Part shown: positions 2,290 to 41,192 of the stretch, piece by piece
How positions within the stretch are numbered: position 1 is the stretch's first letter
Layout of the letters: each line of letters begins with the position of its first letter
Source: an uncultured Candidatus Saccharibacteria bacterium
GTDB lineage: Bacteria > Patescibacteriota > Minisyncoccia > Phycocordibacterales > UBA9973
NCBI GenBank assembly: GCA_964623415.1
Contig: CAZUUH010000002.1
Coordinates: 1-43,426, forward strand
Direction: 5' to 3'
DNA length: 43,426 nucleotides
Position numbers and translations under genes: made by a program
Notes under the pieces: generated by a model
Seen by the model: the letters and a program-made list of their open reading frames with translations, nothing else
What the model was told of the DNA's origin: nothing
The model's database searches: none

Positions 2290-3552
2290 ATGAGGCAATC
2301 ACAATTGTTTACTAAAACTAAGAAAGAAAATCCTTCTGATGAGCAGGCCCTTAATGCTGAGTTACTAATAAAAGCTGGTTATGTTAATAAGGAAATGGCT
2401 GGAGTCTATTCCTTTTTACCTCTTGGGCTTAGGGTTTTAAATAAAATAGAGAATATTATTAGAGATGAAATGAATAAAATTGGTGGGTTAGAAATGAGAA
2501 CTTCTGTTTTCCAAAATAAGGATGTATGGGAAAAATCTGGTAGGTGGGATGACAAAGAGGTTGATGTTTGGTTTAAAACTAAATTAGCTAATGGTTCTAC
2601 TGTGGGTTTATCTTTCACAAATGAAGAAGCTTATTCAAATATATTAAAACAATATATAAATTCATATAAAGATTTACCGATTTATGCTTATGATTTTAAA
2701 AGTATTTTTAGAAACGAAGTAAGAAGTAAATCTGGGCTTTTAAGGGGTCGTGAATTTTACTGGAAAGCTATGTATTCTTTTTCTAGAGATGATGAAGAAC
2801 ACAATCTTTTTTATGAAAAAGCCAAAGAAGCTTATAGAAATATTTTTAAAAGAGTTGGAATAGGGCACCTGACTTATTTGACTTTTGCTTCAGGTGGTAG
2901 TTTTTCTAAATATTCTCACGAATTTCAAGCTATAACTTCTGCTGGAGAAGATACAATATATCTTGATGAGGATAAAGGTATAGCTGTAAATAAAGAGGTT
3001 TACGAAGATGAAATTCTAAAGAATCTTTCTTTAGATAAAGATAAATTAATTGAAAAAAAGGCAATTGAAGTTGCTAATATTTTTTCTTTGGGTACAAAAT
3101 TTTCGGCTCCTTTTGATTTGAAATATAGAAATGAAAAAGGAGAAGATAAAGATGTGATTATGGGTTCTTATGGTCTTGGGCTTAGTAGATTAATGGGTAC
3201 AGTTGTAGAGGTTTTGTCTGATGATAAAGGCATAATTTGGCCAGAAAGTATAGCACCATTTAAAGTTCATTTATTGTCTTTAGGAGATGAAGAAGAATTT
3301 ATTTCAAAAGCAGATAAATTATATGAAATTTTAATTTCTTCTGGTATTGAAGTTTTATATGATGATAGGATTTCTTTGAGTGCTGGAGAAAAATTTGCTG
3401 ATTCTGATTTAATAGGTATCCCTTATAGGATTGTTGTTTCTAAACGCAGTATTTCTGATGGAGGTTACGAATTAAAGAAAAGAATTGAACAAAAAGGTCA
3501 AATTTTGAAAGAAGATGAATTGTTAAAAATATTACTAGAATCCAGTAATTAG
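2290..3552 (+). CDS. proS: Prolyl-tRNA synthetase, minimal bacterial type (no INS editing domain)
   Basis: The N-terminus MRQSQLFTKTKKENPSDEQALNAELLIKAGYVNKEMAGVYSFLPLGLRVLNKIENIIRDEM matches bacterial ProRS. Class II motifs and a C-terminal anticodon-binding domain are present. It is only 420 aa. Confidence 0.88.
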   Translation: MRQSQLFTKTKKENPSDEQALNAELLIKAGYVNKEMAGVYSFLPLGLRVLNKIENIIRDEMNKIGGLEMRTSVFQNKDVWEKSGRWDDKEVDVWFKTKLANGSTVGLSFTNEEAYSNILKQYINSYKDLPIYAYDFKSIFRNEVRSKSGLLRGREFYWKAMYSFSRDDEEHNLFYEKAKEAYRNIFKRVGIGHLTYLTFASGGSFSKYSHEFQAITSAGEDTIYLDEDKGIAVNKEVYEDEILKNLSLDKDKLIEKKAIEVANIFSLGTKFSAPFDLKYRNEKGEDKDVIMGSYGLGLSRLMGTVVEVLSDDKGIIWPESIAPFKVHLLSLGDEEEFISKADKLYEILISSGIEVLYDDRISLSAGEKFADSDLIGIPYRIVVSKRSISDGGYELKKRIEQKGQILKEDELLKILLESSN

Positions 3553-5391: not shown

Positions 5392-8692
<3,301 letters not shown>

Positions 8693-15207: not shown

Positions 15208-16020
15208 ATGGAAAAAATATTTAATCAACCTGAAAATAAAAATAATGAGGTTGTTTCTAGCAACACTTCTATTGAACAAAAACAAAAGGGTCTTGAAGAA
15301 GAAAATAAATCTCTTAAAAAAACTCTTGAGAATATAAAGAATATTTTTTCTATTGCAACTCATGATGTTCGTAATTCAATGTCAGGAATTATTGGGTATG
15401 CGGATCTTTTGTATGAGTTAATTAAAAATGAAGATAAAGATACTGCTATACTGCAATATGCTGAGATAATAAAAAAGAATAGTTATAATTCTCTACATCT
15501 TATTGATGAATTTTCTAATTGGATCAAATTGGAAGTTAATAGTAATAAAAAAGAATTTAGTAAATTTAATTTAAATGATGAAATTTTAGACTCCTTGGTA
15601 GTTTTATCTAATAAAATATCAGAAAAAGAAATAAGATTTAAAGTAAAAATAGATGATGGTATAAACATTCTTTTTAATAAAAATATTATAAAAACAGTAG
15701 TTAGGAATTTAGTTTCTAATGCTGTTAAATTTACAAATAAAGGTGGGGAAGTTATTGTAAGGTCAGATGATATTAATGATGATTTTGTGAAAATTTATGT
15801 TGAAGATAATGGCATTGGTTTAAATAAAGAAAAAATAGCTAAACTTTTTAATGAAGCTTTGGACAGTAGTTTGGGGACTGATAACGAAAAAGGGTTAGGA
15901 ATAGGTTTATATATGTGTAAAAATTTTATGGTTAAAAATGGAGGTAATCTTGAGGTTGAAAGTGAGGGAGAAGGTATGGGTTCAAGATTTATAATAACAA
16001 TTCCAAAAGAAGTGAAATAA
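15208..16020 (+). CDS. Soluble sensor histidine kinase (coiled coil + HisKA + HATPase_c), orphan
   Basis: H-box ATHDVRNSMSGIIGYADLL, N-box RNLVSNAVKFT, G1 VEDNGIGL, G2 GLGIGLYMC. There is no TM segment and no adjacent response regulator. The start is uncertain: the ORF opens at TTG 15178, but ATG 15208 sits 8 nt after TGTTATTAT. Confidence 0.8.
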   Translation: MEKIFNQPENKNNEVVSSNTSIEQKQKGLEEENKSLKKTLENIKNIFSIATHDVRNSMSGIIGYADLLYELIKNEDKDTAILQYAEIIKKNSYNSLHLIDEFSNWIKLEVNSNKKEFSKFNLNDEILDSLVVLSNKISEKEIRFKVKIDDGINILFNKNIIKTVVRNLVSNAVKFTNKGGEVIVRSDDINDDFVKIYVEDNGIGLNKEKIAKLFNEALDSSLGTDNEKGLGIGLYMCKNFMVKNGGNLEVESEGEGMGSRFIITIPKEVK

Positions 16021-16039
16021 AATATATTATATTAAAAAT

Positions 16040-16061
16040 AGCACCTATCGGTGCTATTTTT
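16040..16061 (+). terminator. Rho-independent terminator after the histidine kinase gene
   Basis: AGCACC-tatc-GGTGCT followed by ATTTTT. Confidence 0.6.
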
Positions 16062-16069
16062 AAATAAAG

Positions 16070-16142
16070 TGGACCTTAGCGGACTCGAACCGCTTACCTC
16101 CTCATTGCAAATGAGGCGCTCTACCAGATGAGCTAAAGGCCC
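16070..16142 (-). tRNA. tRNA-Ala (anticodon UGC)
   Basis: The reverse complement is GGGCCTTTAGCTCATCTGGTAGAGCGCCTCATTTGCAATGAGGAGGTAAGCGGTTCGAGTCCGCTAAGGTCCA. It has the G3:U70 identity pair, anticodon arm CCTCA-TTTGCAA-TGAGG and a GGTTCGAGTCC T-arm. Confidence 0.88.
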
Positions 16143-16225
16143 AAAATTAAATACTTATACATATTACCGTATTTTTATTTTTTTGCAAGAGATCGTTTTT
16201 TCTTCTAAACTTTTTTGCTCTAATC

Positions 16226-16234
16226 TGATACAAT
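16226..16234 (+). promoter_or_regulatory. Extended -10 box TGATACAAT upstream of ATPase A
   Basis: TGATACAAT ends 9 nt before the ATG at 16244. Confidence 0.4.
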
Positions 16235-16243
16235 ATAAAAAGG

Positions 16244-17716
16244 ATGTCTTTAAATAAACCAAATAAAATACAAATAATTAAATATGCTCCACCTCCTCCA
16301 GATTTACCAACCTTAGGTAATACTGATCCTAGGGATGCTGTTTTTATTGGAAGAACAAATTATGTTGCTGCTCTTGAAGAAAAGAAATTTATTTTTGGTA
16401 TTAAAAGAGTCGATAGAAGAAGGCATATGTATATAATAGGTAAGTCTGGTGTTGGTAAATCAAAACTTCAAGAATTGATGATTCGCCAAGATATCGCTTA
16501 TGGACAAGGTTTATGTATTATTGACCCACATGGAGAATTAATTGAAGATGTATTAAATTTTATTCCAGAAGAAAGAATTAATGATGTTTGTATTATAGAC
16601 CCTGGTGATATAAAATATCCATCATCATTTAATCCACTAGCTAATGTTGACCCAACTTTTAAGCATCAATTAACTCAAGGTTTGATTGAGGTTTTACGTA
16701 AACAATTTGGTGCAAACTGGACTCCTCGTTTAGAACATGTTTTTCGTTTTACTGTATTGGCATTGCTTGATTATCCTTATGCAACTATGCGTGGAATGAT
16801 AAGCTTGCTTACTGATCGTAACTATCGACAGAAAGTAGTTGAGTACATAGAAGATGATATGGTTAAAAGATTTTGGGCAATTGAATTTGCTGATTGGTCT
16901 GAGAAGTTTGACACAGATGCAATTATTCCTTTAGTTAACAAGCTTGGGCAATTTCTTTCTGATCCAATGCTTAGAAATATTTTTGGACAAAAAGAAAATA
17001 AAATAGATATAGAGAGATTAATGAATGAGAGAAAGATTCTTCTTATTAATTTATCAAAAGGGAAAATCGGAGAAGAGAACTCTTCTTTCTTTGGTGCAAT
17101 GTTTTTAACAAAAATAAAACAAGCAGGAATGGCAAGAGCAAGACTTGATCCTAAAGATAGATCTGATTTTTATCTTTACGTAGATGAGTTTCAGAATATT
17201 GTTACAGATACTTTTGAGAATATTCTCTCCGAAGCTCGCAAGTATGGTATAAATTTAATAATTGCGCATCAATATATCGCACAACTTTTACCAAAGGTTC
17301 AACAAGCCGTGCTTGGGAATGTTGGATCTATTGTTTCATTCCGTGTTGGTGGAGATGATGCTACAAAATTAAAACCCGAGTTTGCTCCTATTTTTGATGT
17401 TAAGGATATGATTAATCTTGGAATAGGTGAATTTTATATTAAAATGACAATAGATGGTGAAAGCTATGACCCTTTCTCTGCTGAAACTCTTCGTGTTCTT
17501 ACTCCAACCCATAGATCATATAGAGAGGAGGTTATAAATGCTTCTAGAAAAAAGTATGCTATTTTAGCTGATGATGCTGAAAAGTTAATAGCTGAAGAAG
17601 AGGCTACGATAATTAGATCTGCTCAAGAAAAATCTGCGATAACAGGTAATAAAAATAATAAAACACAAAAAGGAGGTTCTACTACTGAAGATAAAGAAAA
17701 AGAGCCACTAATATAA
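16244..17716 (+). CDS. Soluble TraD/VirD4-like (coupling-protein-like, FtsK/HerA-superfamily) P-loop ATPase, paralog A
   Basis: Walker A IIGKSGVGKS (nt 16439-16462), Walker B FYLYVDEFQN, and ILSEARKYGINLIIAHQYIAQL, which resembles the TraG/TraD C-terminal block. There are no TM helices. It aligns end to end with ORF 18635-20794. Confidence 0.7.
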   Translation: MSLNKPNKIQIIKYAPPPPDLPTLGNTDPRDAVFIGRTNYVAALEEKKFIFGIKRVDRRRHMYIIGKSGVGKSKLQELMIRQDIAYGQGLCIIDPHGELIEDVLNFIPEERINDVCIIDPGDIKYPSSFNPLANVDPTFKHQLTQGLIEVLRKQFGANWTPRLEHVFRFTVLALLDYPYATMRGMISLLTDRNYRQKVVEYIEDDMVKRFWAIEFADWSEKFDTDAIIPLVNKLGQFLSDPMLRNIFGQKENKIDIERLMNERKILLINLSKGKIGEENSSFFGAMFLTKIKQAGMARARLDPKDRSDFYLYVDEFQNIVTDTFENILSEARKYGINLIIAHQYIAQLLPKVQQAVLGNVGSIVSFRVGGDDATKLKPEFAPIFDVKDMINLGIGEFYIKMTIDGESYDPFSAETLRVLTPTHRSYREEVINASRKKYAILADDAEKLIAEEEATIIRSAQEKSAITGNKNNKTQKGGSTTEDKEKEPLI

Positions 17717-17917
17717 AATTTGTTTTTAAATCATTTTTTAATGATATAATTATAAAGTAAGTGGTCGAAACTAAAAATCATACTTATAGTGTACCTCTAA
17801 TCGCAGGAGTTGATGTGCGTCGTATAAATTATCCATACAAAGAATGGATGATGAAAGAGATAGAATAATTTCAATTTAATTTTTCTATTTAGCTTTTTAG
17901 AAATACCATTAAAAATT

Positions 17918-17954
17918 AAAAAAGTGGCTATACGGTTTAATACCGCATAGCCAC
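17918..17954. terminator. Hairpin terminator overlapping the 3' end of the 7-TM gene
   Basis: GTGGCTATACGG-tttaata-CCGCATAGCCAC (12 bp, 1 mismatch). An A6 run sits on the left, giving U6 on the minus strand, and TTTATT on the right. It is strongest for the minus-strand gene. Confidence 0.6.
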
Positions 17955-18536
17955 TTTATTCCTCCACCATTTATTAACTAAAGGTATTAGTGTAATGGAG
18001 GTTAGTATTATTTCACAGATTGGATAACCAATTTGTTCAATATTTGTATTCTTTGCTGAAGATAGTGACACAATACTGACAATTAGAAAAATTATATATC
18101 CAGTGAGATTGTATTTAACACTTGGATATTTAAAAGTTCTGTATATCAAATATATACCGATTATTGATTCGGAGATTATGCCCAATATTACAGCTGTGAG
18201 TGGTCCACTTATATACCAGCCTAGTATGCACAATATTACAAGTGTTGTTGTAAAAATTTCTCGTTTTGTACAATCTATCCTACCTTGAAATAGTAATATA
18301 ATTGCCATAACAAAAGATCCAACAGCAAAACCAAACAAGATAACAAAATTACCATCTACTTTATTAGTAGATAACATTGTTATCATATCTAACAAAAAAT
18401 ACAATGCCCAAGTTGTAAAGGATTGGCTTTTATCCTTTCTGTTTTTTAATATACCCATTATAAGTGGGATATAGGCAACTATAGATAGCCAAAATACAAT
18501 CCAGTCTATAGGTGCCATTTTTAATAGAACTTCCAT
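17937..18536 (-). CDS. 7-TM integral membrane protein (weak PQ-loop-like N-terminal motif)
   Basis: About seven hydrophobic segments. The first-helix region AYIPLIMGILKNRKDKSQSFTTWALYFLLD loosely resembles a PQ-loop repeat. The family assignment is tentative. Confidence 0.45.
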   Translation of the reverse strand: MEVLLKMAPIDWIVFWLSIVAYIPLIMGILKNRKDKSQSFTTWALYFLLDMITMLSTNKVDGNFVILFGFAVGSFVMAIILLFQGRIDCTKREIFTTTLVILCILGWYISGPLTAVILGIISESIIGIYLIYRTFKYPSVKYNLTGYIIFLIVSIVSLSSAKNTNIEQIGYPICEIILTSITLIPLVNKWWRNKVAMRY

Positions 18537-18559
18537 ATTAATGTTTTTAATTTATCCTT

Positions 18560-18587
18560 ATACTATTCTTCTAAATATTTAAGTCAA
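18560..18587 (-). promoter_or_regulatory. Candidate promoter of the 7-TM gene (TTGACT-16 nt-TAGTAT)
   Basis: On the minus strand, -35 at 18582-18587 and -10 at 18560-18565. It is divergent from the ATPase B promoter within a 98-bp spacer. Confidence 0.35.
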
Positions 18588-18612
18588 GCTTATTTATATT
18601 TAAAAAAATAAA

Positions 18613-18621
18613 TGGTATAAT
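18613..18621 (+). promoter_or_regulatory. Extended -10 box TGGTATAAT upstream of ATPase B
   Basis: TGGTATAAT ends 13 nt before the ATG at 18635. There is no SD in between. Confidence 0.45.
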
Positions 18622-18634
18622 TAAACTAACATAT

Positions 18635-20794
18635 ATGAACAGCGAAATTCCACAAAATAGAGACATTACATATTTTGCCAAAACAAATTTTAGAAGTAGT
18701 AATTCTGTTTTTGGTATTAAAAGAAAAGACCGTAGACAGCATATGTATATACTTGGAAAATCTGGTACAGGTAAATCTGTTCTTATGTCTAATTTAATTG
18801 CTCAAAATATCCAAAATGGAGAGGGTGTTTGTGTTGTCGATCCCCACGGAGAGCTTGTTGAAGAAATATTAGAAATGATACCAGAGCATAGAGTTAATGA
18901 TGTAATCTATTTTAATCCTGCAGATATTGATTTTCATATTGGATTCAATGTTTTGCAAGTAGAAGACCCAAAATATAAACACTTGGTTGCTTCTGGTCTT
19001 ATGGGTATATTTACAAAGATTTGGGCAAATGCATGGAGTTCTCGTATGGAATACATTTTAAATAATGCGATTTTGGCTTTACTTGATACACCTGGCACAA
19101 CTCTTTTGGGTATTCCTAGGTTACTTGTTGATAAAGAATACAGACAAATGATCATAGGTAATCTAAAAGATCCCGTTGTTAAATCTTTTTGGATACACGA
19201 ATACGAACAATGGCGTGAACAGTTTCGTAATGAAGCAATAGCTCCTATTCAAAATAAAGTTGGTCAGTTTCTCTCTACGTCAATGATACGTAATGTTTTA
19301 GGACAGAAAAAATCAACCATCGATATTTTTAAAATAATGAATGAGGGTAAAATTTTTCTTGTTAACGTTTCAAAGGGTCGTATAGGAGAAGACAATTCTG
19401 CATTACTTGGTGGAATGATAATCACAAAGATACAGCTTGCTGCTATGGAGCGTGTACGTATTCCAGAAGATGAACGTAGGGATTTTTATCTTTATGTGGA
19501 TGAATTCCAGAATTTTGCAACTGAGTCTTTTGCGAATATTTTATCAGAAGCTCGTAAATATAGATTGAACTTAACAGTTGCTCACCAGTATATTGCTCAG
19601 CTCGAAAATAAAGATGGATCTAAGGTTTCTGACGCTGTTTTTGGTAACGTTGGAACGATGATAGTATTCCGAGTGGGAGCAGATGATGCAGACTTTTTAG
19701 AAAAAGAGTTTGAACCTGAATTTACAGCTCAAGATTTAGTTAATCTTCCAAATTATAATATATATTTGAAACTTATGATTGATGGAATAACCAGTCGACC
19801 TTTTTCAGCAACTACACTTCCTCCAATAAAAATTGATCGTTCTTTAGGGGTTAAGGATAAAATAATCGATGCTTCTCGTAAATTATATACTAGACCAAGA
19901 AAAGAAGTTGAAACTGAAATCGATAAATGGAGTGGGACACTTCAAACGAATGAAGGAGAATCAAGATATAAGGTTGATTGTTTTAATTGTAAAAAAATAA
20001 CGACTGTTCCATTTGAGCCCAAAGAAGGAAGGCCTGTTTATTGTAGGGATTGTATGAATAAAATAAAAAGTGGTGAGTTAAAGGCACAACAGGGTTTTAT
20101 TAATAACAATAATTATAATAATAATAGTAATAAAGTTTCTGTTGCTCCACTTGCTTCACTTGGTATTGAATTTGAAAATAAGGGTGTAGTTAAGAATAAA
20201 GATAAACAGACTCAGGTTGTCCAAAATAATAATCCTAAGAATCAAAACAGTAACAAAAACAATAAAAAATTTTTAGGACCATCACCACTTTTAAAAGGTT
20301 TGTTGCAGAAAATTGCCCAAGGTGATGAAAAAGTTATTAAAGATAAAGATTTAGAAATAGTTGAAGTTAAAAGACCAACAATCGAACCAATTTCTCTTTC
20401 TTCTCTTAAAAATAAAGAACCTAACAGAAATATCAATAACACAAAAGAAGCATCAGAAGAGAAAAAAGCTTCTCTTAAAAATTTTTTAGAGAAAATAAAT
20501 AAAACAGAAGGGGTTATAGAGAATGTAAAAGAAAATAATGGTAAAAAGTTAAATAATGTACCAGAATTAAAACAAGAACCAGAGTTAAAACAAGAACCAG
20601 AATTAGATCAAAAAATAGACAAAAAAGAAAACATGGTTGAAAAAATTAATATAGAAGAAGAAAAAATTAAAGAAGATAAGGTTGTAGAAGAAAGAAATCA
20701 ACAATCAGATAATAATATTAATAACCCATCTTGGCAAAAACCAAAAGCAAGAAAAGAGGTTCCCGAAGATGTTTTAAGAAAAATTTTAGAATAA
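18635..20794 (+). CDS. TraD/VirD4-like P-loop ATPase, paralog B, with C-terminal CxxC-x17-CxxC zinc ribbon and long K/E/N-rich tail
   Basis: Walker A ILGKSGTGKS, Walker B FYLYVDEFQN, ILSEARKYRLNLTVAHQYIAQL. The zinc ribbon CFNCKKITTVPFEPKEGRPVYCRDC is at nt 19979-20053. It is followed by about 245 aa of low-complexity tail. Confidence 0.72.
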   Translation: MNSEIPQNRDITYFAKTNFRSSNSVFGIKRKDRRQHMYILGKSGTGKSVLMSNLIAQNIQNGEGVCVVDPHGELVEEILEMIPEHRVNDVIYFNPADIDFHIGFNVLQVEDPKYKHLVASGLMGIFTKIWANAWSSRMEYILNNAILALLDTPGTTLLGIPRLLVDKEYRQMIIGNLKDPVVKSFWIHEYEQWREQFRNEAIAPIQNKVGQFLSTSMIRNVLGQKKSTIDIFKIMNEGKIFLVNVSKGRIGEDNSALLGGMIITKIQLAAMERVRIPEDERRDFYLYVDEFQNFATESFANILSEARKYRLNLTVAHQYIAQLENKDGSKVSDAVFGNVGTMIVFRVGADDADFLEKEFEPEFTAQDLVNLPNYNIYLKLMIDGITSRPFSATTLPPIKIDRSLGVKDKIIDASRKLYTRPRKEVETEIDKWSGTLQTNEGESRYKVDCFNCKKITTVPFEPKEGRPVYCRDCMNKIKSGELKAQQGFINNNNYNNNSNKVSVAPLASLGIEFENKGVVKNKDKQTQVVQNNNPKNQNSNKNNKKFLGPSPLLKGLLQKIAQGDEKVIKDKDLEIVEVKRPTIEPISLSSLKNKEPNRNINNTKEASEEKKASLKNFLEKINKTEGVIENVKENNGKKLNNVPELKQEPELKQEPELDQKIDKKENMVEKINIEEEKIKEDKVVEERNQQSDNNINNPSWQKPKARKEVPEDVLRKILE
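20561..20614 (+). repeat. In-frame tandem 18-nt repeat x3 (PELKQE/PELKQE/PELDQK) in the ATPase B tail
   Basis: The units are ccagaattaaaacaagaa, ccagagttaaaacaagaa and ccagaattagatcaaaaa, read directly from the sequence. Confidence 0.9.
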
Positions 20795-20797
20795 TTT

Positions 20798-22219
20798 ATG
20801 CCAATAAGGGAGGTAAAAATATTACTTTATATAATTGTTTTATTTTTATTTTTTATTTTTCGAGCGGATGCTAATATTTTTATAAACGAAATACAAATAT
20901 CTGATACTGATGATCGCTTTATAGAATTATATAATTCCTCAGATTCAATAGTTGATTTAACTGATTGGTATATACAAAGGAAAACAGCTACTGGTATTGA
21001 TTTTGGATCTTTGGTTTCAAAGACTTATTTTAATGGTAAAAGTATAAAAGCTTCTAGTTATTTTGTGATATCAAAAGGGGATTTTGGTGATATTATTTTT
21101 CCTAATTTAACTTTAACTGAGTCTAATTCAATTCAAATTAAAAATTCTAAGCAAGAGGTAGTTGATATAATTGGATGGGGAGATTCGCCTGATTGTAACA
21201 GTGTTTGTGATAATAATCCAATTACTGGTAAAAGTTTACAAAGGTTACCGGGTGGAGATTGGGTTATAGCAAACCCAACTATAGGTAAAAATAACTCATC
21301 AAATAGTTTTGTGGATGAAACAGAAGAAGATAAAGACCAATACGAAGATGAAAATATTGTTTTAAAAAAAGAAAATACAAAAGAAATTTTACCACTTAAA
21401 ATATCAACAAAAATATCTTCCCCAAAAATTATTACAGTTGGAGATCCTTTTTCTTTTAGTTCTAAGACGACAGATAATAGAGGGAAAACATATTATGTAG
21501 GTAGATTTATCTGGAATTTCGGTGATGGTAATAAAATTGAGGTAGAAGACTCTGGCCCGTTTGAGTATGTTTATGAATACGAAGGAGAATATATATTACA
21601 TTTAATGTATTTTGATAATGATTTCGCTGAAAATCCAGAAGCCACAGATAAAATTAAAATCAAAGTTATACCACCTAGTATATATATAAATAGTGTTGGA
21701 GATAATATTAATCCATATGTTGAATTAAAAAATAAATCTAAAGACGACATAGATATATCTGGGTGGTCTATTGTTACTGGTTATAGAATTTTTTCATTTC
21801 CTTATGGAACACTGATTCCTAGTGGTCAAACAATAAAACTACATAAGAGAGTAACTGGTTTTGATGAGTATGATATAGAATATTTAATAATTCAAAATCC
21901 AAGAGGTGATATAGTCTCTACTTATCCAGCATCTTCTAATTTTAAGGTAGGTAAAGTATTAGATTCTCAAAAAGTTATAGTTGATAAACCAAAAGAAGAA
22001 AATAAAGAGGATATTAAAAAAGAAGAAATAATTAATTTAAATAATTTAGAAGCAAGTGCAATAAAACAGGGTAAAGAGATAAATATATATATCATCGGTT
22101 TAGTTTCAGTTATCATTATTGGTATTTTGGGAGTATTATTTTTGAGAAAAAAATATGAATTTCAAAAAGACGATTTAGATGAAAATGTTAGTATTGATGA
22201 TATTAAAATAATAGAATAG
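20798..22219 (+). CDS. Membrane-anchored surface protein: signal peptide, lamin-tail domain, PKD-like domain, second lamin-tail domain, C-terminal TM
   Basis: LTD1 is IFINEIQISDTDDRFIELYNSSDSIVDLTDWYI. The PKD-like block is FIWNFGDGNKIEV...YEYEGEYILHLMYFD. LTD2 is IYINSVGDNINPYVELKNKSKDDIDISGWSIVTG. The C-terminal helix is IYIIGLVSVIIIGILGVLFL followed by RKK. The gene starts 3 nt after the ATPase B stop. Confidence 0.7.
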   Translation: MPIREVKILLYIIVLFLFFIFRADANIFINEIQISDTDDRFIELYNSSDSIVDLTDWYIQRKTATGIDFGSLVSKTYFNGKSIKASSYFVISKGDFGDIIFPNLTLTESNSIQIKNSKQEVVDIIGWGDSPDCNSVCDNNPITGKSLQRLPGGDWVIANPTIGKNNSSNSFVDETEEDKDQYEDENIVLKKENTKEILPLKISTKISSPKIITVGDPFSFSSKTTDNRGKTYYVGRFIWNFGDGNKIEVEDSGPFEYVYEYEGEYILHLMYFDNDFAENPEATDKIKIKVIPPSIYINSVGDNINPYVELKNKSKDDIDISGWSIVTGYRIFSFPYGTLIPSGQTIKLHKRVTGFDEYDIEYLIIQNPRGDIVSTYPASSNFKVGKVLDSQKVIVDKPKEENKEDIKKEEIINLNNLEASAIKQGKEINIYIIGLVSVIIIGILGVLFLRKKYEFQKDDLDENVSIDDIKIIE

Positions 22220-22289
22220 TAATAAAGATTGAAGGATATATCTTTTATGCTATAATGACTTGTACATTTATTATAAGAACAAATCATTT

Positions 22290-23705
22290 ATGTTTAAAAA
22301 GACAAAAATAGTAGCTACTATAGGTCCAGCAACAACCTCGAAAGAAATGCTTGCAAAATTATTAAAAGCCGGTCTTAATGTTATTCGTCTTAACTTTTCT
22401 CATGGTGATTTTAAAGAACATCAATTAAAGGTTGATAATTTTCGTAATGCAATAAAAGAAACTGGTATATCAGGAGCTATTTTACAAGATCTTTCTGGCC
22501 CTAAAATAAGATTAGGCGATTTTTATCAAGAAAAAATAGAACTTAAAAAGGGAGATTTTATAACTATAACAACAGATAAAATAGTTGGTGATGAGAAAAA
22601 AGTTTCTATAAATTACCCATTATTTCCTAAAGAAGTTAAGGAAGGAGATTCTATTATGATAGATGACGGTAAAAAGAGATTTCAGGTTGTTGAAGTTAAC
22701 GGAAAAGAAGTTTTATGTAAGATAATGGTTGGAGGAACAACAAAAGGACGTAGGGGTGTTAATTTACCGGATTCTGATATCTCAATTAAGTCACTTACAG
22801 ATAAAGATATAAAAGATATCGATTTTGGTATTAAAAATAAAGTTGATTTTTTTGCTTTTTCTTTTGTTAGGAAACCAGAAGATGTTATAGAGCTACGTGA
22901 AATTTTAAATAAAAGAAAATCTAAGGCAAAAATTATTGCAAAGATAGAAACTCCTCAAGCTATAAAAAATTTAGATGCAATTTTAGAGCTTTGTGATGGT
23001 CTTATGGTTGCTCGTGGAGATTTGGCTATAGAAGTTCCTGCTGAGAAAGTTCCATTATTGCAGAAAATGATAATTAAAAAATGTAATGATGCTGGAAAGA
23101 TTGTTATTACAGCAACTCAGATGCTTGAATCAATGATTAAATCTCCAGTTCCTACACGTGCAGAAGTTTCTGATGTGGCTAATGCTATTCTTGATGGAAC
23201 TGATGCAATAATGTTGTCAGAAGAAACAACTCTTGGCGAGTATCCTATCGAGGCTGTAAATGTAATGTCTCGTGTTGCTAGAGAAATAGAGCATAATTAC
23301 CCAGAAATAAAAGAAATACCAAATACTAACGATTTAAACCGAGAAATAACAGATTCTATAACAGAAGGAGTAGTTAAAATTTCTCATAACATTGGAGCTA
23401 AGGCGATTATTGCAATGACTGAATCAGGTTATACAGCAAGAATGGTTTCTAGGCATAAACCAGAAGCTCCTATTCTTGCAATTACTCCAAACGAAGTAAC
23501 TTATAGGCAAATATGTATTTCATTTGGTTGCTACCCCGTAATGGTTCCAAATTTTAAAAATTATGAAGAAGTATCAAATTTTGTTAGAGATTATTGTAAA
23601 AAAAATAAAATTGCAGAAAAAGGCGATAGTGTTGTAGTAACTGGAGGAATGCCATTTAGTAAGAAAAGTGGATCGACTAATATGATAATGGTTGCAAAAA
23701 TATAA
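22290..23705 (+). CDS. pyk: Pyruvate kinase
   Basis: Contains KTKIVATIGPAT, VIRLNFSHGD, IIAKIETPQA, MVARGDLAIEVP and ITATQMLESM. I chose the ATG at 22290 rather than the TTG at 22260. Confidence 0.92.
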   Translation: MFKKTKIVATIGPATTSKEMLAKLLKAGLNVIRLNFSHGDFKEHQLKVDNFRNAIKETGISGAILQDLSGPKIRLGDFYQEKIELKKGDFITITTDKIVGDEKKVSINYPLFPKEVKEGDSIMIDDGKKRFQVVEVNGKEVLCKIMVGGTTKGRRGVNLPDSDISIKSLTDKDIKDIDFGIKNKVDFFAFSFVRKPEDVIELREILNKRKSKAKIIAKIETPQAIKNLDAILELCDGLMVARGDLAIEVPAEKVPLLQKMIIKKCNDAGKIVITATQMLESMIKSPVPTRAEVSDVANAILDGTDAIMLSEETTLGEYPIEAVNVMSRVAREIEHNYPEIKEIPNTNDLNREITDSITEGVVKISHNIGAKAIIAMTESGYTARMVSRHKPEAPILAITPNEVTYRQICISFGCYPVMVPNFKNYEEVSNFVRDYCKKNKIAEKGDSVVVTGGMPFSKKSGSTNMIMVAKI

Positions 23706-25138: not shown

Positions 25139-26209
25139 TTACTCTTGATCGTATTTTTCTAAATATGTTGTAAGTTGTCTATTTACTCTTAAAAATGTTG
25201 CTCTTTTAGAAAACTCTTTTAATCTTCTTGCCCCTATGTATGTTCCAGTACTTCTTAACGAGCCAAATAAATCTTGTATAAAGTTATCAATTGGACCTTT
25301 GTATGGCATAAGCACATAGCGTCCTTCAGAAGCTCTGTATTCTCCCTTTTTACCATAGAAATCGACTAAAGCTTTATTGGAAGATGAACCAAAATATTCT
25401 TTATATTTTTTATTATCTTTTTCTATTAAGTTACCGGCACTTTCATCAAAACCAGAAAATAATGATCCTGCCATATTAAAATCTGCACCTCCACAAAATG
25501 CTTTTGATACACAAGATGGATATTGCTGACCACCATCTGCAATTACAAGACCATACCCACCATTACTATTAGATATACCGTGTGCAGCATCAGAACACTC
25601 TATAACAGCAGAAAGCTGTGGATATCCAACACCTGTCATCTTTCTTGTTGTACAGACGGATCCGGGCCCTATTCCAACTTTTACAATATCTGCACCAGAA
25701 AGAATGATTTCTTCAGTCATTTCATTTGTAACCACATTACCTGCGATAATGATATGGTCTGGACACAAGCTCCTAACTAATTTTATAGATTCAAGAAATC
25801 TTTCTAAATACCCATTTGGTATATCTATGCAAATAAAAGAAAAATTATTTATTAGTCCGCTAGAGATAATTTCTTTCAATTTATTAATATCTTCATCTCT
25901 TATACCAAGTGTGTATATTATATAATCTGGATTATTAAATTCTTTAAAGAAATTTTTATAGTCTTCTATGGAATAATATTTATGAAAAGCGGTTAACATT
26001 TTGTATTTAGATAAAGTTTTAGCCATTTCAAAAGTTCCACATGTTGCCATGTTTGATGCTATTATGGGGACGCCTTCCCATGTTTTAGGAGAGTGATAGA
26101 ATTTAAATTTACGCTCTAATATAACTTCTTTTCTTGAAGAGAGAGTGCTTCTTTTCGGTCTAAGTAATACATCTGCATAGTCTAGTTTTATGTCATCTTC
26201 TATTCTCAT
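25139..26209 (-). CDS. guaC: GMP reductase
   Basis: MRIEDDIKLDYADVLLRPKRSTLSSRKEV, IVKVGIGPGSVCTTR and TGVGYPQLSAVIEC are near-identical blocks to enterobacterial GuaC. There is no CBS insert. I chose the ATG at 26209. Confidence 0.9.
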   Translation of the reverse strand: MRIEDDIKLDYADVLLRPKRSTLSSRKEVILERKFKFYHSPKTWEGVPIIASNMATCGTFEMAKTLSKYKMLTAFHKYYSIEDYKNFFKEFNNPDYIIYTLGIRDEDINKLKEIISSGLINNFSFICIDIPNGYLERFLESIKLVRSLCPDHIIIAGNVVTNEMTEEIILSGADIVKVGIGPGSVCTTRKMTGVGYPQLSAVIECSDAAHGISNSNGGYGLVIADGGQQYPSCVSKAFCGGADFNMAGSLFSGFDESAGNLIEKDNKKYKEYFGSSSNKALVDFYGKKGEYRASEGRYVLMPYKGPIDNFIQDLFGSLRSTGTYIGARRLKEFSKRATFLRVNRQLTTYLEKYDQE

Positions 26210-26281
26210 ACAAAATAATAATATCATAATCAGGATTTTAATACCATTTTAAACTAATTTTATGTATGATATATTATAAAT

Positions 26282-38657: not shown

Positions 38658-39668
38658 ATGATCAATAAAAAAATAAAATTTATCCTTTTGGCATTTACGA
38701 TTCTTTTACCTTTTTTGTTTCAATCTTCAGTTTCTGCAGAGATTTTGTTTTCTTCTTTTAGTCCTAGTTCTGCAAAGGTTGGTGATATTATAACGATTTC
38801 AGGTCAAGAATTTTTTAATATAAATAAAGTCTTTTTTAAGAATATAAACGGTTCTAATATTGAGGCATATATAATTGCTATTAATGAAAATTCTATAAAA
38901 GTTAAAGTTCCAGAAAATGTTGGAGATGGTAAAATTACTATTCAGACTGTAAAGACTGGTGGTATTACCAATGAATATACTTCTTCACAAATATTCAAAA
39001 CATTCATGCCTTCGTTTGATTTTTCACCTAAGAGTGGTAAAGAAGGAGATGAGGTTGTTATTAGTAGTAATGATAATATTTCAGGTGTGAGTGCTGTTTT
39101 ATTTGGAGGTGTATCTTCTATACCAATAATTAATAATGAAAATTTTATTCAAGTACTTGTTCCTAGGAATGCTAAAACTGGTAAAATAATTATTAAGACG
39201 GATAAATATGGTGATGTTGCAAGTTTAATTGATTTTAGATTAGAAGATATTTTAAATAGTTCTACAACAACTGGAAATGTTATAGATAAACAGAAAGAAG
39301 ATGTATCGTTAGATTATAATCATCCAACAATAAAATTTAATGGTATTGTTCCTATTTGTAATGTTGATGGAATAAATGAAAAGACTGGAGATTACATTAA
39401 TAACTGTGATTTTGAGGATTTAATGGCTTTAGTCAATAAATTTATTAATTTTATTTTAATAACTTTAGCTACACCACTTTTTGCATTAATAATGATATAT
39501 GTAGGGTTTATATATTTGACTTCTGGTGGTGACTCAGGAAAGATATCTTCTTCGAAGAAGATATTTCAGAATGCTTTTTTGGGTTATATTATTGCTTTAG
39601 CTTCTTGGTTAATTATTAAAACAATCTTAACTTCATTTGGTTATGTTGATATAAGTAAGTGGTTTTAA
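38658..39668 (+). CDS. Signal peptide + 2x IPT/TIG domains + C-terminal VirB2/TrbC-like (CPR T4SS-pilin-type) two-TM domain
   Basis: Signal peptide ends in SVSA-E. The TIG repeats are FSPSSAKVGDIITISGQEF...VPENVGDGKITIQT and FSPKSGKEGDEVVISS...VPRNAKTGKIIIKT. The C-terminal block is IVPICN...NNCDFEDLMALVNKFINFILITLATPLFALIMIYVGFIYLTSGGDSGK...FLGYIIALASWLIIKTIL. Confidence 0.65.
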   Translation: MINKKIKFILLAFTILLPFLFQSSVSAEILFSSFSPSSAKVGDIITISGQEFFNINKVFFKNINGSNIEAYIIAINENSIKVKVPENVGDGKITIQTVKTGGITNEYTSSQIFKTFMPSFDFSPKSGKEGDEVVISSNDNISGVSAVLFGGVSSIPIINNENFIQVLVPRNAKTGKIIIKTDKYGDVASLIDFRLEDILNSSTTTGNVIDKQKEDVSLDYNHPTIKFNGIVPICNVDGINEKTGDYINNCDFEDLMALVNKFINFILITLATPLFALIMIYVGFIYLTSGGDSGKISSSKKIFQNAFLGYIIALASWLIIKTILTSFGYVDISKWF

Positions 39669-39689
39669 ATTATTATTTAATTTTATTCT

Positions 39690-40097
39690 ATGAAAATTTT
39701 TAAAGATAAAAAATATACATTTTTTTCAAAATTATTAAAAGGAGGATTGATTTTTGTATTTGCTTTTTCTGTATTTCTACCAGGTGTTATTGTTTATAGT
39801 GATCAGACTGTGCAAACAAAAATCGAAAATCCATTAGGAGAAAATGGTCCGCAAGATATACCAGATTTTATCGATAGAGCAATTGATATTGTGTTGGTTG
39901 TAGGTGTACCTATTGTTGTTCTTGCTATAATATATAGTGGTTTTCTTTTTGTTTCTGCACAAGGAAATTCTGAAAAACTTAAAAAAGCAAAGCAAGCAAT
40001 TTTATATAGTATTATAGGAGCAGTTTTACTTTTAGGGGCGTTTGTTATAGCAAATGCTATTTCAGATACGGTTAAAGATATAGAGAAGGGTGCTTAG
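39690..40097 (+). CDS. Small VirB2/TrbC-like pilin-family protein (signal/anchor + two TM helices)
   Basis: 135 aa. A hydrophobic leader is followed by IPDFIDRAIDIVLVVGVPIVVLAIIYSGFLFVSAQGNSEKLKKAKQAILYSIIGAVLLLGAFVI. Confidence 0.55.
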   Translation: MKIFKDKKYTFFSKLLKGGLIFVFAFSVFLPGVIVYSDQTVQTKIENPLGENGPQDIPDFIDRAIDIVLVVGVPIVVLAIIYSGFLFVSAQGNSEKLKKAKQAILYSIIGAVLLLGAFVIANAISDTVKDIEKGA

Positions 40098-40143
40098 TTA
40101 CAATAATGGTCGATTATTTAAATAAAGTTTATTTATAAAAATT

Positions 40144-40473
40144 ATGAATATATTACCAATTGCAGAAGCTGCAGGACCAGTAACAGATATAACAAGTTTA
40201 ATAACATTCTTATCTGATATATTATCGAATGCGATTCTTCCTCTTCTTATAACACTAGCTGTCATAGGTTTTGTCTTTGGAATTATAAAATATTTAGTTG
40301 CAGGAGATAATGAAGAAAAGCGTAAGAAGGGTAAGGAATTTATGACTTGGGGTTTGGTATCTTTATTTGTTATGGTTAGTTTCTGGGGGATAATATCAAT
40401 TTTTCAGAAATCATTTAATGTAACAGAAGATGGAAGTAATATTAGGATTCCGAGGATTCCAGAGTCAAATTAA
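40144..40473 (+). CDS. Small VirB2/TrbC-like pilin-family protein
   Basis: 109 aa: LPLLITLAVIGFVFGIIKYLVAGDNEEKRKKGKEFMTWGLVSLFVMVSFWGII. It is a paralog of the two following ORFs. Confidence 0.6.
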   Translation: MNILPIAEAAGPVTDITSLITFLSDILSNAILPLLITLAVIGFVFGIIKYLVAGDNEEKRKKGKEFMTWGLVSLFVMVSFWGIISIFQKSFNVTEDGSNIRIPRIPESN

Positions 40474-40495
40474 GCTTGTTCTAGTATTGTATTAT

Positions 40496-40504
40496 TGTTA
40501 TAAT
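40496..40504 (+). promoter_or_regulatory. Internal extended -10 box TGTTATAAT (a second TATAAT at 40521-40526) upstream of the ORF at 40566
   Basis: Read directly from the 92-nt spacer between two pilin-like genes. Confidence 0.35.
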
Positions 40505-40565
40505 ATATAGAGAGTTTGTTTATAATTATTAGTTTGGTCGCTTATTATTAAGAATTTAAAAATAT

Positions 40566-40919
40566 ATGAAAAAATTTGTATTATTTGGTTTAGTTTCATC
40601 TTTTTTGCCAGTTGCAGCTTTTGCAGCAGCAGATTTGGGTGATGTTTTAGCAAAACTTATAGGTTATCTTAACTATATTGTTCCGGCATTGATTACTGTT
40701 GCTGTGGTTTACTTTGTTTGGGGAGTTATTTCTTTTATTACTTCAAGTGAAGAAGAAGCTAAGAAAAAAGGTAAAACAAAGATAATCAATGGTCTTATCG
40801 GCTTATTTGTTATTGTTTCTTTCTGGGGAATTATTGCTATAGTTCAAAGAAGTTTAGAAGTTAATCCTTATCCATCTGGAGATATTGTTCCAGATGTTCC
40901 TACAAGAATTAATAATTAA
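40566..40919 (+). CDS. Small VirB2/TrbC-like pilin-family protein with classical signal peptide
   Basis: 117 aa. The signal peptide is MKKFVLFGLVSSFLPVAAFAAA. It is followed by VPALITVAVVYFVWGVISFITSSEEEAKKKGKTKIINGLIGLFVIVSFWGII. Confidence 0.62.
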   Translation: MKKFVLFGLVSSFLPVAAFAAADLGDVLAKLIGYLNYIVPALITVAVVYFVWGVISFITSSEEEAKKKGKTKIINGLIGLFVIVSFWGIIAIVQRSLEVNPYPSGDIVPDVPTRINN

Positions 40920-40922
40920 TTT

Positions 40923-41192
40923 ATGAATTTATTTTTTACACCTATAGCTGAAGCAAGTGCGCAAACATTAATGAATAGTATAAATAAGGTTATAATTAAT
41001 CCACTTATTATTCTTTTGTTTTCTTTAGCTGTTGTGTACTTTATTTTGGGGCTTGTTAGATATCTATTATCTCCAGACAATGAAGATGTTAGAAAAACAA
41101 GTAAATCTCATATGTTTTGGGGTTTGGTAGGAATATTTATCATGCTTTCAGTTTATGGCATATTAAATATAATAGTTAATACTCTATCTTAA
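40923..41192 (+). CDS. Small VirB2/TrbC-like pilin-family protein
   Basis: 89 aa: INPLIILLFSLAVVYFILGLVRYLLSPDNEDVRKTSKSHMFWGLVGIFIMLSVYGIL. It starts 3 nt after the previous stop. Confidence 0.6.
   Translation: MNLFFTPIAEASAQTLMNSINKVIINPLIILLFSLAVVYFILGLVRYLLSPDNEDVRKTSKSHMFWGLVGIFIMLSVYGILNIIVNTLS

Follow-up and report, generated by a model that had tools for sequence, protein, structure and literature searches.

Chromosomal VirD4/TrwB-like ATPases A and B in a Patescibacteria genome, and DUF8128 as a probable ancestral partner of the pair

Background

With which membrane component does a soluble ATPase work when it resembles the coupling proteins of type IV secretion systems (T4SS) and has no membrane anchor of its own? 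The question is raised by two paralogous P-loop ATPases, here called A and B, that are encoded close to each other on contig CAZUUH010000002.1 (assembly GCA_964623415.1) of an uncultured Candidatus Saccharibacteria bacterium. The window, that is, the whole stretch of DNA that was analyzed, comprises 43,426 nucleotides. A first-pass annotation of this DNA proposed that four adjacent genes make up a scavenging module for DNA or nucleotides, in which A and B are the motor, an antisense protein with seven transmembrane helices (the 7-TM protein) is the conduit, and a surface protein with lamin-tail domains (LTD) arranged as LTD-PKD-LTD is the receptor.

The current work addresses the family, fold class, paralogy, synteny, gene fusions and distribution of the two ATPases. 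A and B are probably the Paceibacteria A-type and B-type members of a chromosomal, vertically inherited pair of VirD4/TrwB-like ATPases whose ancestral partner was DUF8128. Comparative genomics indicates that DUF8128, not the 7-TM gene, is the conserved membrane partner of the pair elsewhere in the phylum.

The two ATPases

A and B can be aligned by BLASTP over 416 aa with 49% identity and 67% positives (E=2e-141), and the identical sequence blocks from which their paralogy had been proposed are present in both. The features of the two genes are as follows.

16244..17716, + strand: A, VirD4/TrwB-like ATPase of the A-type, 490 aa, soluble (Pfam)
16280..16309, + strand: KYAPPPPDLP motif near the N-terminus of A (comparison of N-termini)
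16439..16462, + strand: Walker A of A, GKSGVGKS, aa 66-73 (sequence and alignment)
17165-17188, + strand: Walker B of A, DFYLYVDE (sequence and alignment)
18635..20794, + strand: B, VirD4/TrwB-like ATPase of the B-type, whole gene, 719 aa (Pfam, Foldseek)
18635..19939, + strand: core of B, aa 1-435 (Pfam TrwB_AAD_bind)
18755-18778, + strand: Walker A of B, GKSGTGKS, aa 41-48
B, aa 112-237: helical insertion between the Walker A strand and Walker B (AlphaFold2 model, moderate confidence)
19481-19504, + strand: Walker B of B, DFYLYVDE
19964..20065, + strand: zinc ribbon of B, CxxC-x17-CxxC, aa 444-477 (Pfam, NCBIfam)
20066..20794, + strand: low-complexity tail of B, rich in K, E and N, with conserved islands and the C-terminal motif EVPEDVLRKILE (conserved alignment columns)

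Both proteins exceed the Pfam gathering cut-offs for TrwB_AAD_bind (1.8e-8 for A; 3.5e-16 over aa 30-348 for B), TraG-D_C, T4SS-DNA_transf and DUF87. When the PDB was searched by sequence with B as the sole query, TrwB was the only significant match (1.6e-7). An AlphaFold2 model of B aa 1-480 (pLDDT 62, pTM 0.64) was compared by Foldseek; the coupling proteins DotL, TrwB and Cag-beta came out on top, ahead of DndH and HerA, and no VirB4 chain was found among the best 50 listed structural matches. Models of related ATPases were not reached: FtsK_SpoIIIE gave 13 bits against a cut-off of 24 bits, confined to the P-loop region, and the NCBIfam model VirB4_CagE gave 18.9 bits against 643. Membership in a defence system was considered and rejected, PADLOC having returned generic HerA/mad8 P-loop matches only. 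A hydropathy scan detected no transmembrane segment in either protein, in agreement with the first-pass annotation. The assignment of A and B as VirD4/TrwB-type ATPases, similar to type IV coupling proteins (T4CPs) but without a transmembrane anchor of their own, is thus supported by their sequences.

The zinc ribbon of B is recognized by Pfam zf_Tbcl_2 (3.8e-13) and by TIGR04272 above its cut-off, and the CxxC-x17-CxxC motif occurs in 72 of 85 B-type proteins across classes. Bit scores, group profiles and a tree all place A and B in two distinct orthologous groups. Relatives reach 750-980 bits with A and about 420 with B; with group profiles, A scores 964 bits for the A-type and 549 for the B-type, and B scores 980 for the B-type and 501 for the A-type.

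DUF8128, conserved gene order and gene fusions

In more distant lineages (Doudna-, Morani-, Uhr-, Magasanik-, Staskawicz-, Liptonbacteria and others), the genes in front of B are secD and secF and those for a helix-turn-helix (HTH) protein and a protein of about 450 aa. The HTH protein has about 350 aa and contains Sigma70_r4 and HARE-HTH domains; the ~450-aa protein is PF26449, DUF8128, according to precomputed Pfam annotation, and carries one or two N-terminal transmembrane helices. A reading of this conserved upstream cassette as pilB/pilT/pilC proved wrong: it consists of secD/secF, the HTH protein and DUF8128.

In about 40 loci, DUF8128 stands either directly before B, or before a small gene (c35) that is followed by A, with B adjacent in two of them (L026 and L031). 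The gaps are mostly small, below 25 nt in about 30 of these loci. The order in Paceibacteria is TGT, Peptidase_M23, secD, secF, HTH protein, DUF8128, c35, A, CutA1, Cys-rich proteins and B, after which EF-P lies on the opposite strand. In a metagenome scan seeded with DUF8128, an A-type gene was found within the next three genes in 57 of the 58 loci with enough downstream sequence, the HTH gene stood just upstream in 43 of 45, and secDF was located upstream in 36 of 45.

Two further families accompany these loci. The product of c35 is a small transmembrane protein of about 175 aa (such as L026:4114-4647 and L088:8422-8952) without any Pfam match; its RNxxxH motif, present in 53 of 60 distinct homologs, resembles the HEPN Rx4-6H signature. 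In Paceibacteria loci, a family of Cys-rich proteins (about 550-600 aa), likewise without a Pfam match, is encoded one to four times, either between A and B or behind them (examples are L005:3712-5355 and L092:12257-17407).

The partnership is also indicated by gene fusions. Many representatives of 750-1,130 aa join a transmembrane helix and DUF8128 directly to the ATPase in one protein. A search with one fusion as query returned 5,178 matches, and the best 120 of these, from Saccharimonadia, Berkelbacteria and other Patescibacteria, all carry both PF26449 and PF10412. In a Saccharimonadia metagenome-assembled genome and in a complete Berkelbacteria genome, two fusion genes stand in tandem, overlapping or abutting, between TGT and secF/secD; the presence of paired paralogous ATPases beside secDF thus extends across the phylum.

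A short motif also marks the junction. Stand-alone DUF8128 proteins end with PPxNLP, which is found again at the DUF8128/ATPase junction of the fusions, and PPxxLP occurs in 28 of 29 A-type N-termini, including KYAPPPPDLP in the window. It is absent from the B-type N-termini. This N-terminal motif suggests that A is the ortholog of the shorter Saccharimonadia fusion (f1), but a neighbor-joining tree does not. A separate observation concerns three distant homologs of about 1,200 aa (P0333, P0339 and P0368), apparently from GC-rich organisms, in which two T4CP-like ATPase domains lie in tandem on one polypeptide; one has a C-terminal region that looks nuclease-like.

No link from DUF8128 to Pfam or PDB entries was found at the sequence level. 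With a predicted structure of DUF8128 (pLDDT 83, pTM 0.78), the nine best Foldseek matches were TrwK/VirB4 chains of the R388 T4SS (E 3e-5 to 1.4e-3), presumably matched through the N-terminal half of TrwK, at TM-scores of only 0.28-0.33. The model is suggestive of a module like the N-terminal domain of VirB4 that is joined to a VirD4-like motor.

Distribution and relation to type IV secretion systems

The ATPase family comprises 24,405 cluster representatives (50% identity) at E<=1e-3, and at least 600 matching stretches were found in GTDB species genomes, with many Patescibacteria candidate phyla among them. In a recent survey, 5,713 VirD4-type T4CP homologs are reported from 2,918 of 3,035 Patescibacteria genomes, that is, about 1.96 per genome in 96% of genomes, and only 148 of the 5,713 are located near virB4 (Quinonero-Coronel et al. 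2025, PMC12102498). These homologs are almost certainly the same proteins as A and B. The chromosomal and vertically inherited nature of the ATPases, outside any conjugative element, is supported by their distribution, by the housekeeping content of the window and by the small number of homologs near virB4, and the first-pass annotation was correct on this point.

Paired orphan ATPases of this kind are already on record in the survey, whose authors raise exaptation as a possibility; Wang et al. (2023, PMC10633639) noted that the essential T4SS of Southlakia has no recognizable coupling protein. The A- and B-type subfamilies, the DUF8128 partner and its fusions, the secDF/TGT synteny, the zinc ribbon and the LTD neighbor are not described in the available parts of PMC12102498. 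A literature search likewise found no description of the A/B split, the DUF8128 partnership and fusions, the secDF/TGT synteny or the LTD neighbor, and a full-text search for 'DUF8128' returned zero papers. The ATPase pair is thus already known, and its partnership with DUF8128 appears to be undescribed.

A and B could be the missing coupling proteins of a VirB4-type T4SS, encoded away from virB4 and delivering substrates in trans. Their T4CP-type fold would suit this role, and most of the T4SS loci published for Patescibacteria have no T4CP linked to them (PMC10633639; PMC12102498). The survey, on the other hand, gives VirB4 in 2,417 of the 3,035 genomes, fewer than those with VirD4-type homologs, in addition to the rarity of homologs near virB4, and in Southlakia the T4SS genes are essential and the T4CP homolog is not (PMC12102498). 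The TrwK/VirB4 matches of DUF8128 would be compatible with docking into the inner-membrane complex of a T4SS, and a cluster of VirB2-like pilin genes lies in the same window (38658-41192); the conserved neighbors of the ATPases are secDF, TGT and the HTH protein, not T4SS genes. Delivery in trans is plausible but, on this balance, rather unlikely.

A housekeeping DNA pump of the FtsK/HerA type, acting in chromosome segregation or repair and not in envelope transport, seems quite improbable. The best matches of the ATPases are coupling proteins rather than FtsK or HerA, the Southlakia homolog is non-essential (PMC12102498), and TM7x, whose class carries the fusion pair, possesses an ftsK gene of its own (PMC10768705). 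Together with the sub-threshold FtsK_SpoIIIE score, this ftsK gene also makes a replacement of FtsK by A and B unlikely. In favor of such a pump are the FtsK-HerA superfamily membership with DUF87 above its cut-off, the presence of HerA and DndH among the structural and PADLOC matches, the vertical and near-universal inheritance, the zinc ribbon on B, and the HTH/HARE-HTH protein encoded beside DUF8128.

Neighboring genes in the window

All four open reading frames of the proposed module were found where the first-pass annotation had placed them. The features around the ATPases are listed below.

16069-16142: tRNA-Ala, flanking A upstream
17921..17957, - strand: perfect hairpin of 16 bp followed by a T-run, overlapping the 7-TM stop codon, between the convergent A and 7-TM genes
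17937..18536, - strand: lineage-specific protein with 6-7 transmembrane helices, 199 aa, judged to be outside the system (hydropathy, synteny)
18593..18621, + strand: promoter-like site with a TG-extended -10 (TTTATA-17-TATAAT), upstream of B (consensus scan)
20798..22219, + strand: type I membrane surface protein, LTD-PKD-LTD, 473 aa (Pfam, hydropathy)
25139-26227: IMPDH/GMP-reductase-family gene (domain scan)

Eighty-six loci around B homologs (L001-L086) were collected and all of their open reading frames were clustered. The 199-aa antisense protein contains six hydrophobic segments, one of them broad, and hence 6-7 transmembrane helices by the hydropathy scan; it has no Pfam, NCBIfam, PADLOC or PDB sequence match and may have a 3+1+3 fold like that of PQ-loop/SWEET proteins. 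Among the 86 loci, its homologs are confined to contigs of the same organism, apart from one weak 154-aa match in L013. The gene upstream of B falls into a separate cluster in each distinct genome of the window clade, with the exception of L008 and L009, which share one. The homologous position lacks the 7-TM gene in all other relatives. Synteny across the loci therefore refutes the 'conduit', and the best explanation of the antisense gene is an unrelated insertion.

The LTD protein is of the expected type, with an N-terminal signal or transmembrane segment, a C-terminal transmembrane helix at aa 425-453, LTD in two stretches (Pfam, 6.1e-22) and one PKD_4 domain (3.8e-7). In the nearest clade (about 10 distinct genomes, L001-L014, B identity >=74%), every complete locus has the LTD gene directly downstream of B, and this adjacency is kept although the flanking genes on both sides differ. 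The LTD relatives of that clade broadly share the cytoplasmic C-terminus ..D[IM]xI[IV]E. An LTD gene follows B in none of L015-L086. The link between LTD and B is real but confined to the nearest clade; the conserved neighborhood proposed for the two genes holds there and fails as a general rule.

The intergenic distances are those given before, 98 nt in the divergent spacer between the 7-TM gene and B and 3 nt between B and the LTD gene. The latter is no evidence of coupling, because, of the 27 gaps between same-strand genes in the window, 13 do not exceed 5 nt, including those of unrelated pairs such as MreC/TGT, TGT/UvrB and UvrC/Ddl. The C-terminal motif of B does not co-vary with an LTD neighbor either: EVPEDVLRK(I/V)LE is equally conserved in the window clade and in the sister clade, where that neighbor is missing. 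A protein encoded elsewhere, at L103:4941-6530, matches the profile of the LTD neighbor with 43 bits (family members reach 480-680); its gene is directly upstream of an HTH-DUF8128-c35-A block, where secDF usually stands.

A and B are predicted to be transcribed separately in the window. The hairpin at 17921-17957, toward which A and the 7-TM gene converge, is the sole terminator-like site within 16000-22400, and B has a promoter-like site of its own. The latter is weak evidence, because such sites are not enriched over shuffled sequences in the consensus scan.

The scavenging module of four genes is thereby largely refuted, its 7-TM component above all, and as a whole it is very improbable. 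Its remaining attractions are the adjacency of the four genes, the B-LTD pairing maintained in about 10 related genomes despite varying flanks, and a weak match of the LTD region to the exonuclease ExeM (E=0.0017, far below the cut-off). LTD domains are also present in secreted nucleases and some ComEC proteins. These stand against the missing 7-TM gene and missing LTD gene in most relatives, the ordinary length of the 3-nt gap, the motif that does not co-vary, and the probable separation of A and B into two transcription units. The survey of the 86 loci thus gives no conserved four-gene neighborhood.

Pyruvate kinase and enolase are encoded downstream of the four genes, so that the tRNA-Ala and glycolysis flanks were correctly described, as was the IMPDH/GMP-reductase-family gene. 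The remaining genes of the window are housekeeping genes: S2, EF-Ts, MreB, MreC, TGT, UvrA, UvrB, UvrC, Ddl and GyrA, together with two aminoacyl-tRNA synthetases, a class II enzyme (2290-3552) and HisRS. No relaxase, VirB4 or integrase domain was detected in any scanned open reading frame of the 43-kb window. The statement that hallmarks of mobile elements are missing is correct for these three and needs one qualification, since a T4SS pilin-like cluster is located at 38658-41192 on the + strand, about 18 kb downstream of the ATPases. It begins with a TIG/IPT-domain protein that has a pilin-like C-terminal pair of transmembrane helices, followed by four small paralogs with two transmembrane helices each (135, 109, 117 and 89 aa), the first of which matches Pfam T4SS_pilin (PF18895) with 37 bits against a cut-off of 26.6. 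The cluster is VirB2-like, has no VirB4 gene in the window, and accounts for all T4SS-related genes of the window apart from the ATPases.

Probable rearrangement in the window lineage

The ancestral state would be a pair of ATPases partnered with DUF8128, a protein that combines N-terminal transmembrane helices with a cytoplasmic domain. DUF8128 is fused N-terminally to each ATPase in Saccharimonadia and Berkelbacteria, and the genes are split in Paceibacteria. In the window clade, the DUF8128 block probably became detached from A and B, and B probably gained the stably linked LTD-PKD-LTD gene downstream.

In the sister clade (L015-L029), the chaperone genes dnaK and dnaJ enclose B and A (grpE ... 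dnaK-B-(Cys-rich)-A-dnaJ; for example L018:673-10834); this arrangement suggests co-expression of the ATPases with the chaperone operon. In the window, TGT is encoded at 5392-6609 on the + strand, about 10 kb upstream of A, and in other Patescibacteria TGT is a near neighbor of the DUF8128/ATPase block. The ancestral synteny may thus persist in part in the window, where uvrBAC, ddl, gpsA and other genes would have taken the place of the secDF-DUF8128 segment.

Several observations weigh against the explanation preferred here, a DUF8128-partnered pair of coupling-protein-like ATPases. DUF8128, c35, the HTH protein, secDF, CutA1 and EF-P were all absent from the 43-kb window by hmmsearch and tblastn, and DUF8128, c35, the HTH protein and secDF were not found within 6-8 kb of A and B in about 30 loci of the window clade and the sister clade. 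The DUF8128 partner of this organism may thus be lost. The metagenome scan for DUF8128 returned only loci in which it is still linked to A, and either relocation or loss in the window lineage may have taken place. As to the family itself, the NCBIfam equivalogs of T4CPs (TraD/VirD4) all remain far under their cut-offs, the best being conju_CD1115 with 54 bits against 250, and SXT_TraD reaches 52 bits against 366. The structural similarity of B to T4CPs, with TM-scores of about 0.45-0.52 from a model of pLDDT 62, is of moderate confidence.

Possible function

By analogy with the family, we infer that the ATPases assemble as a ring, dock to the membrane by way of DUF8128 and act as a translocase. 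The ring would possibly be made of both paralogs, and in it ATP hydrolysis would drive or gate the passage of a macromolecule, either DNA or protein. The zinc ribbon and the disordered tail of B may recruit the substrate or a partner.

A more far-reaching proposal is that A and B with DUF8128, possibly a VirB4-like domain combined with a VirD4-like motor, constitute a minimal and vertically inherited membrane translocon, present in nearly all Patescibacteria and independent of the pilus-bearing T4SS. It might represent an early form or an intermediate between VirB4 and VirD4, moving DNA or protein across the single membrane, and in the window clade it would have been rewired to an LTD surface protein that captures an extracellular ligand. 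This proposal is speculative and, taken in full, unlikely.

Patescibacteria account for much of bacterial diversity and rely on macromolecule exchange with their hosts. Their two 'orphan' coupling-protein homologs, whose role was left open in the 2025 survey, can now be linked, through conserved operons and natural gene fusions, to DUF8128 as an uncharacterized membrane partner. Published genetic tools exist for Saccharimonadia, in which the fusions are found, so that the question is directly testable. Local gene order alone was misleading in this case; it suggested a 7-TM 'conduit' and a universal LTD 'receptor' that are both unsupported.

Comparison with known systems

ExeM, an extracellular exonuclease containing LTD, shares the lamin-tail Ig-like domain with the surface protein of the window, and its NCBIfam model matches in the LTD region only. 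The window protein has no nuclease, phosphatase or ComEC domain and consists of LTD-PKD-LTD, a transmembrane helix and a short tail.

Type IV coupling proteins (TrwB of R388, VirD4, TraD, DotL and Cag-beta) share with A and B the P-loop nucleotide-binding domain and the helical insertion between Walker A and Walker B; their families TrwB_AAD_bind, TraG-D_C and T4SS-DNA_transf match both ATPases, and they are the best structural matches of B. Unlike them, A and B lack a transmembrane domain of their own, are not linked to a relaxase or virB4, and form a conserved chromosomal pair in which B bears a zinc ribbon and a long disordered tail. In the relatives of A and B, the transmembrane anchor of the coupling proteins is supplied by a separate or fused DUF8128.

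VirB4/TrwK, a T4SS ATPase with a membrane-associated N-terminal domain, pairs with VirB3. The fusion of transmembrane helices, DUF8128 and ATPase parallels the VirB3-VirB4 arrangement, and the presence of two subunits per unit recalls the dimers of VirB4. The differences are that the ATPase half of the fusions is VirD4-like, with VirB4 models reaching about 19 bits, and that the similarity of DUF8128 does not extend to the sequence level. If DUF8128 is indeed like the N-terminal domain of VirB4, this family would bear on the kinship of the two ATPase lineages of type IV secretion systems.

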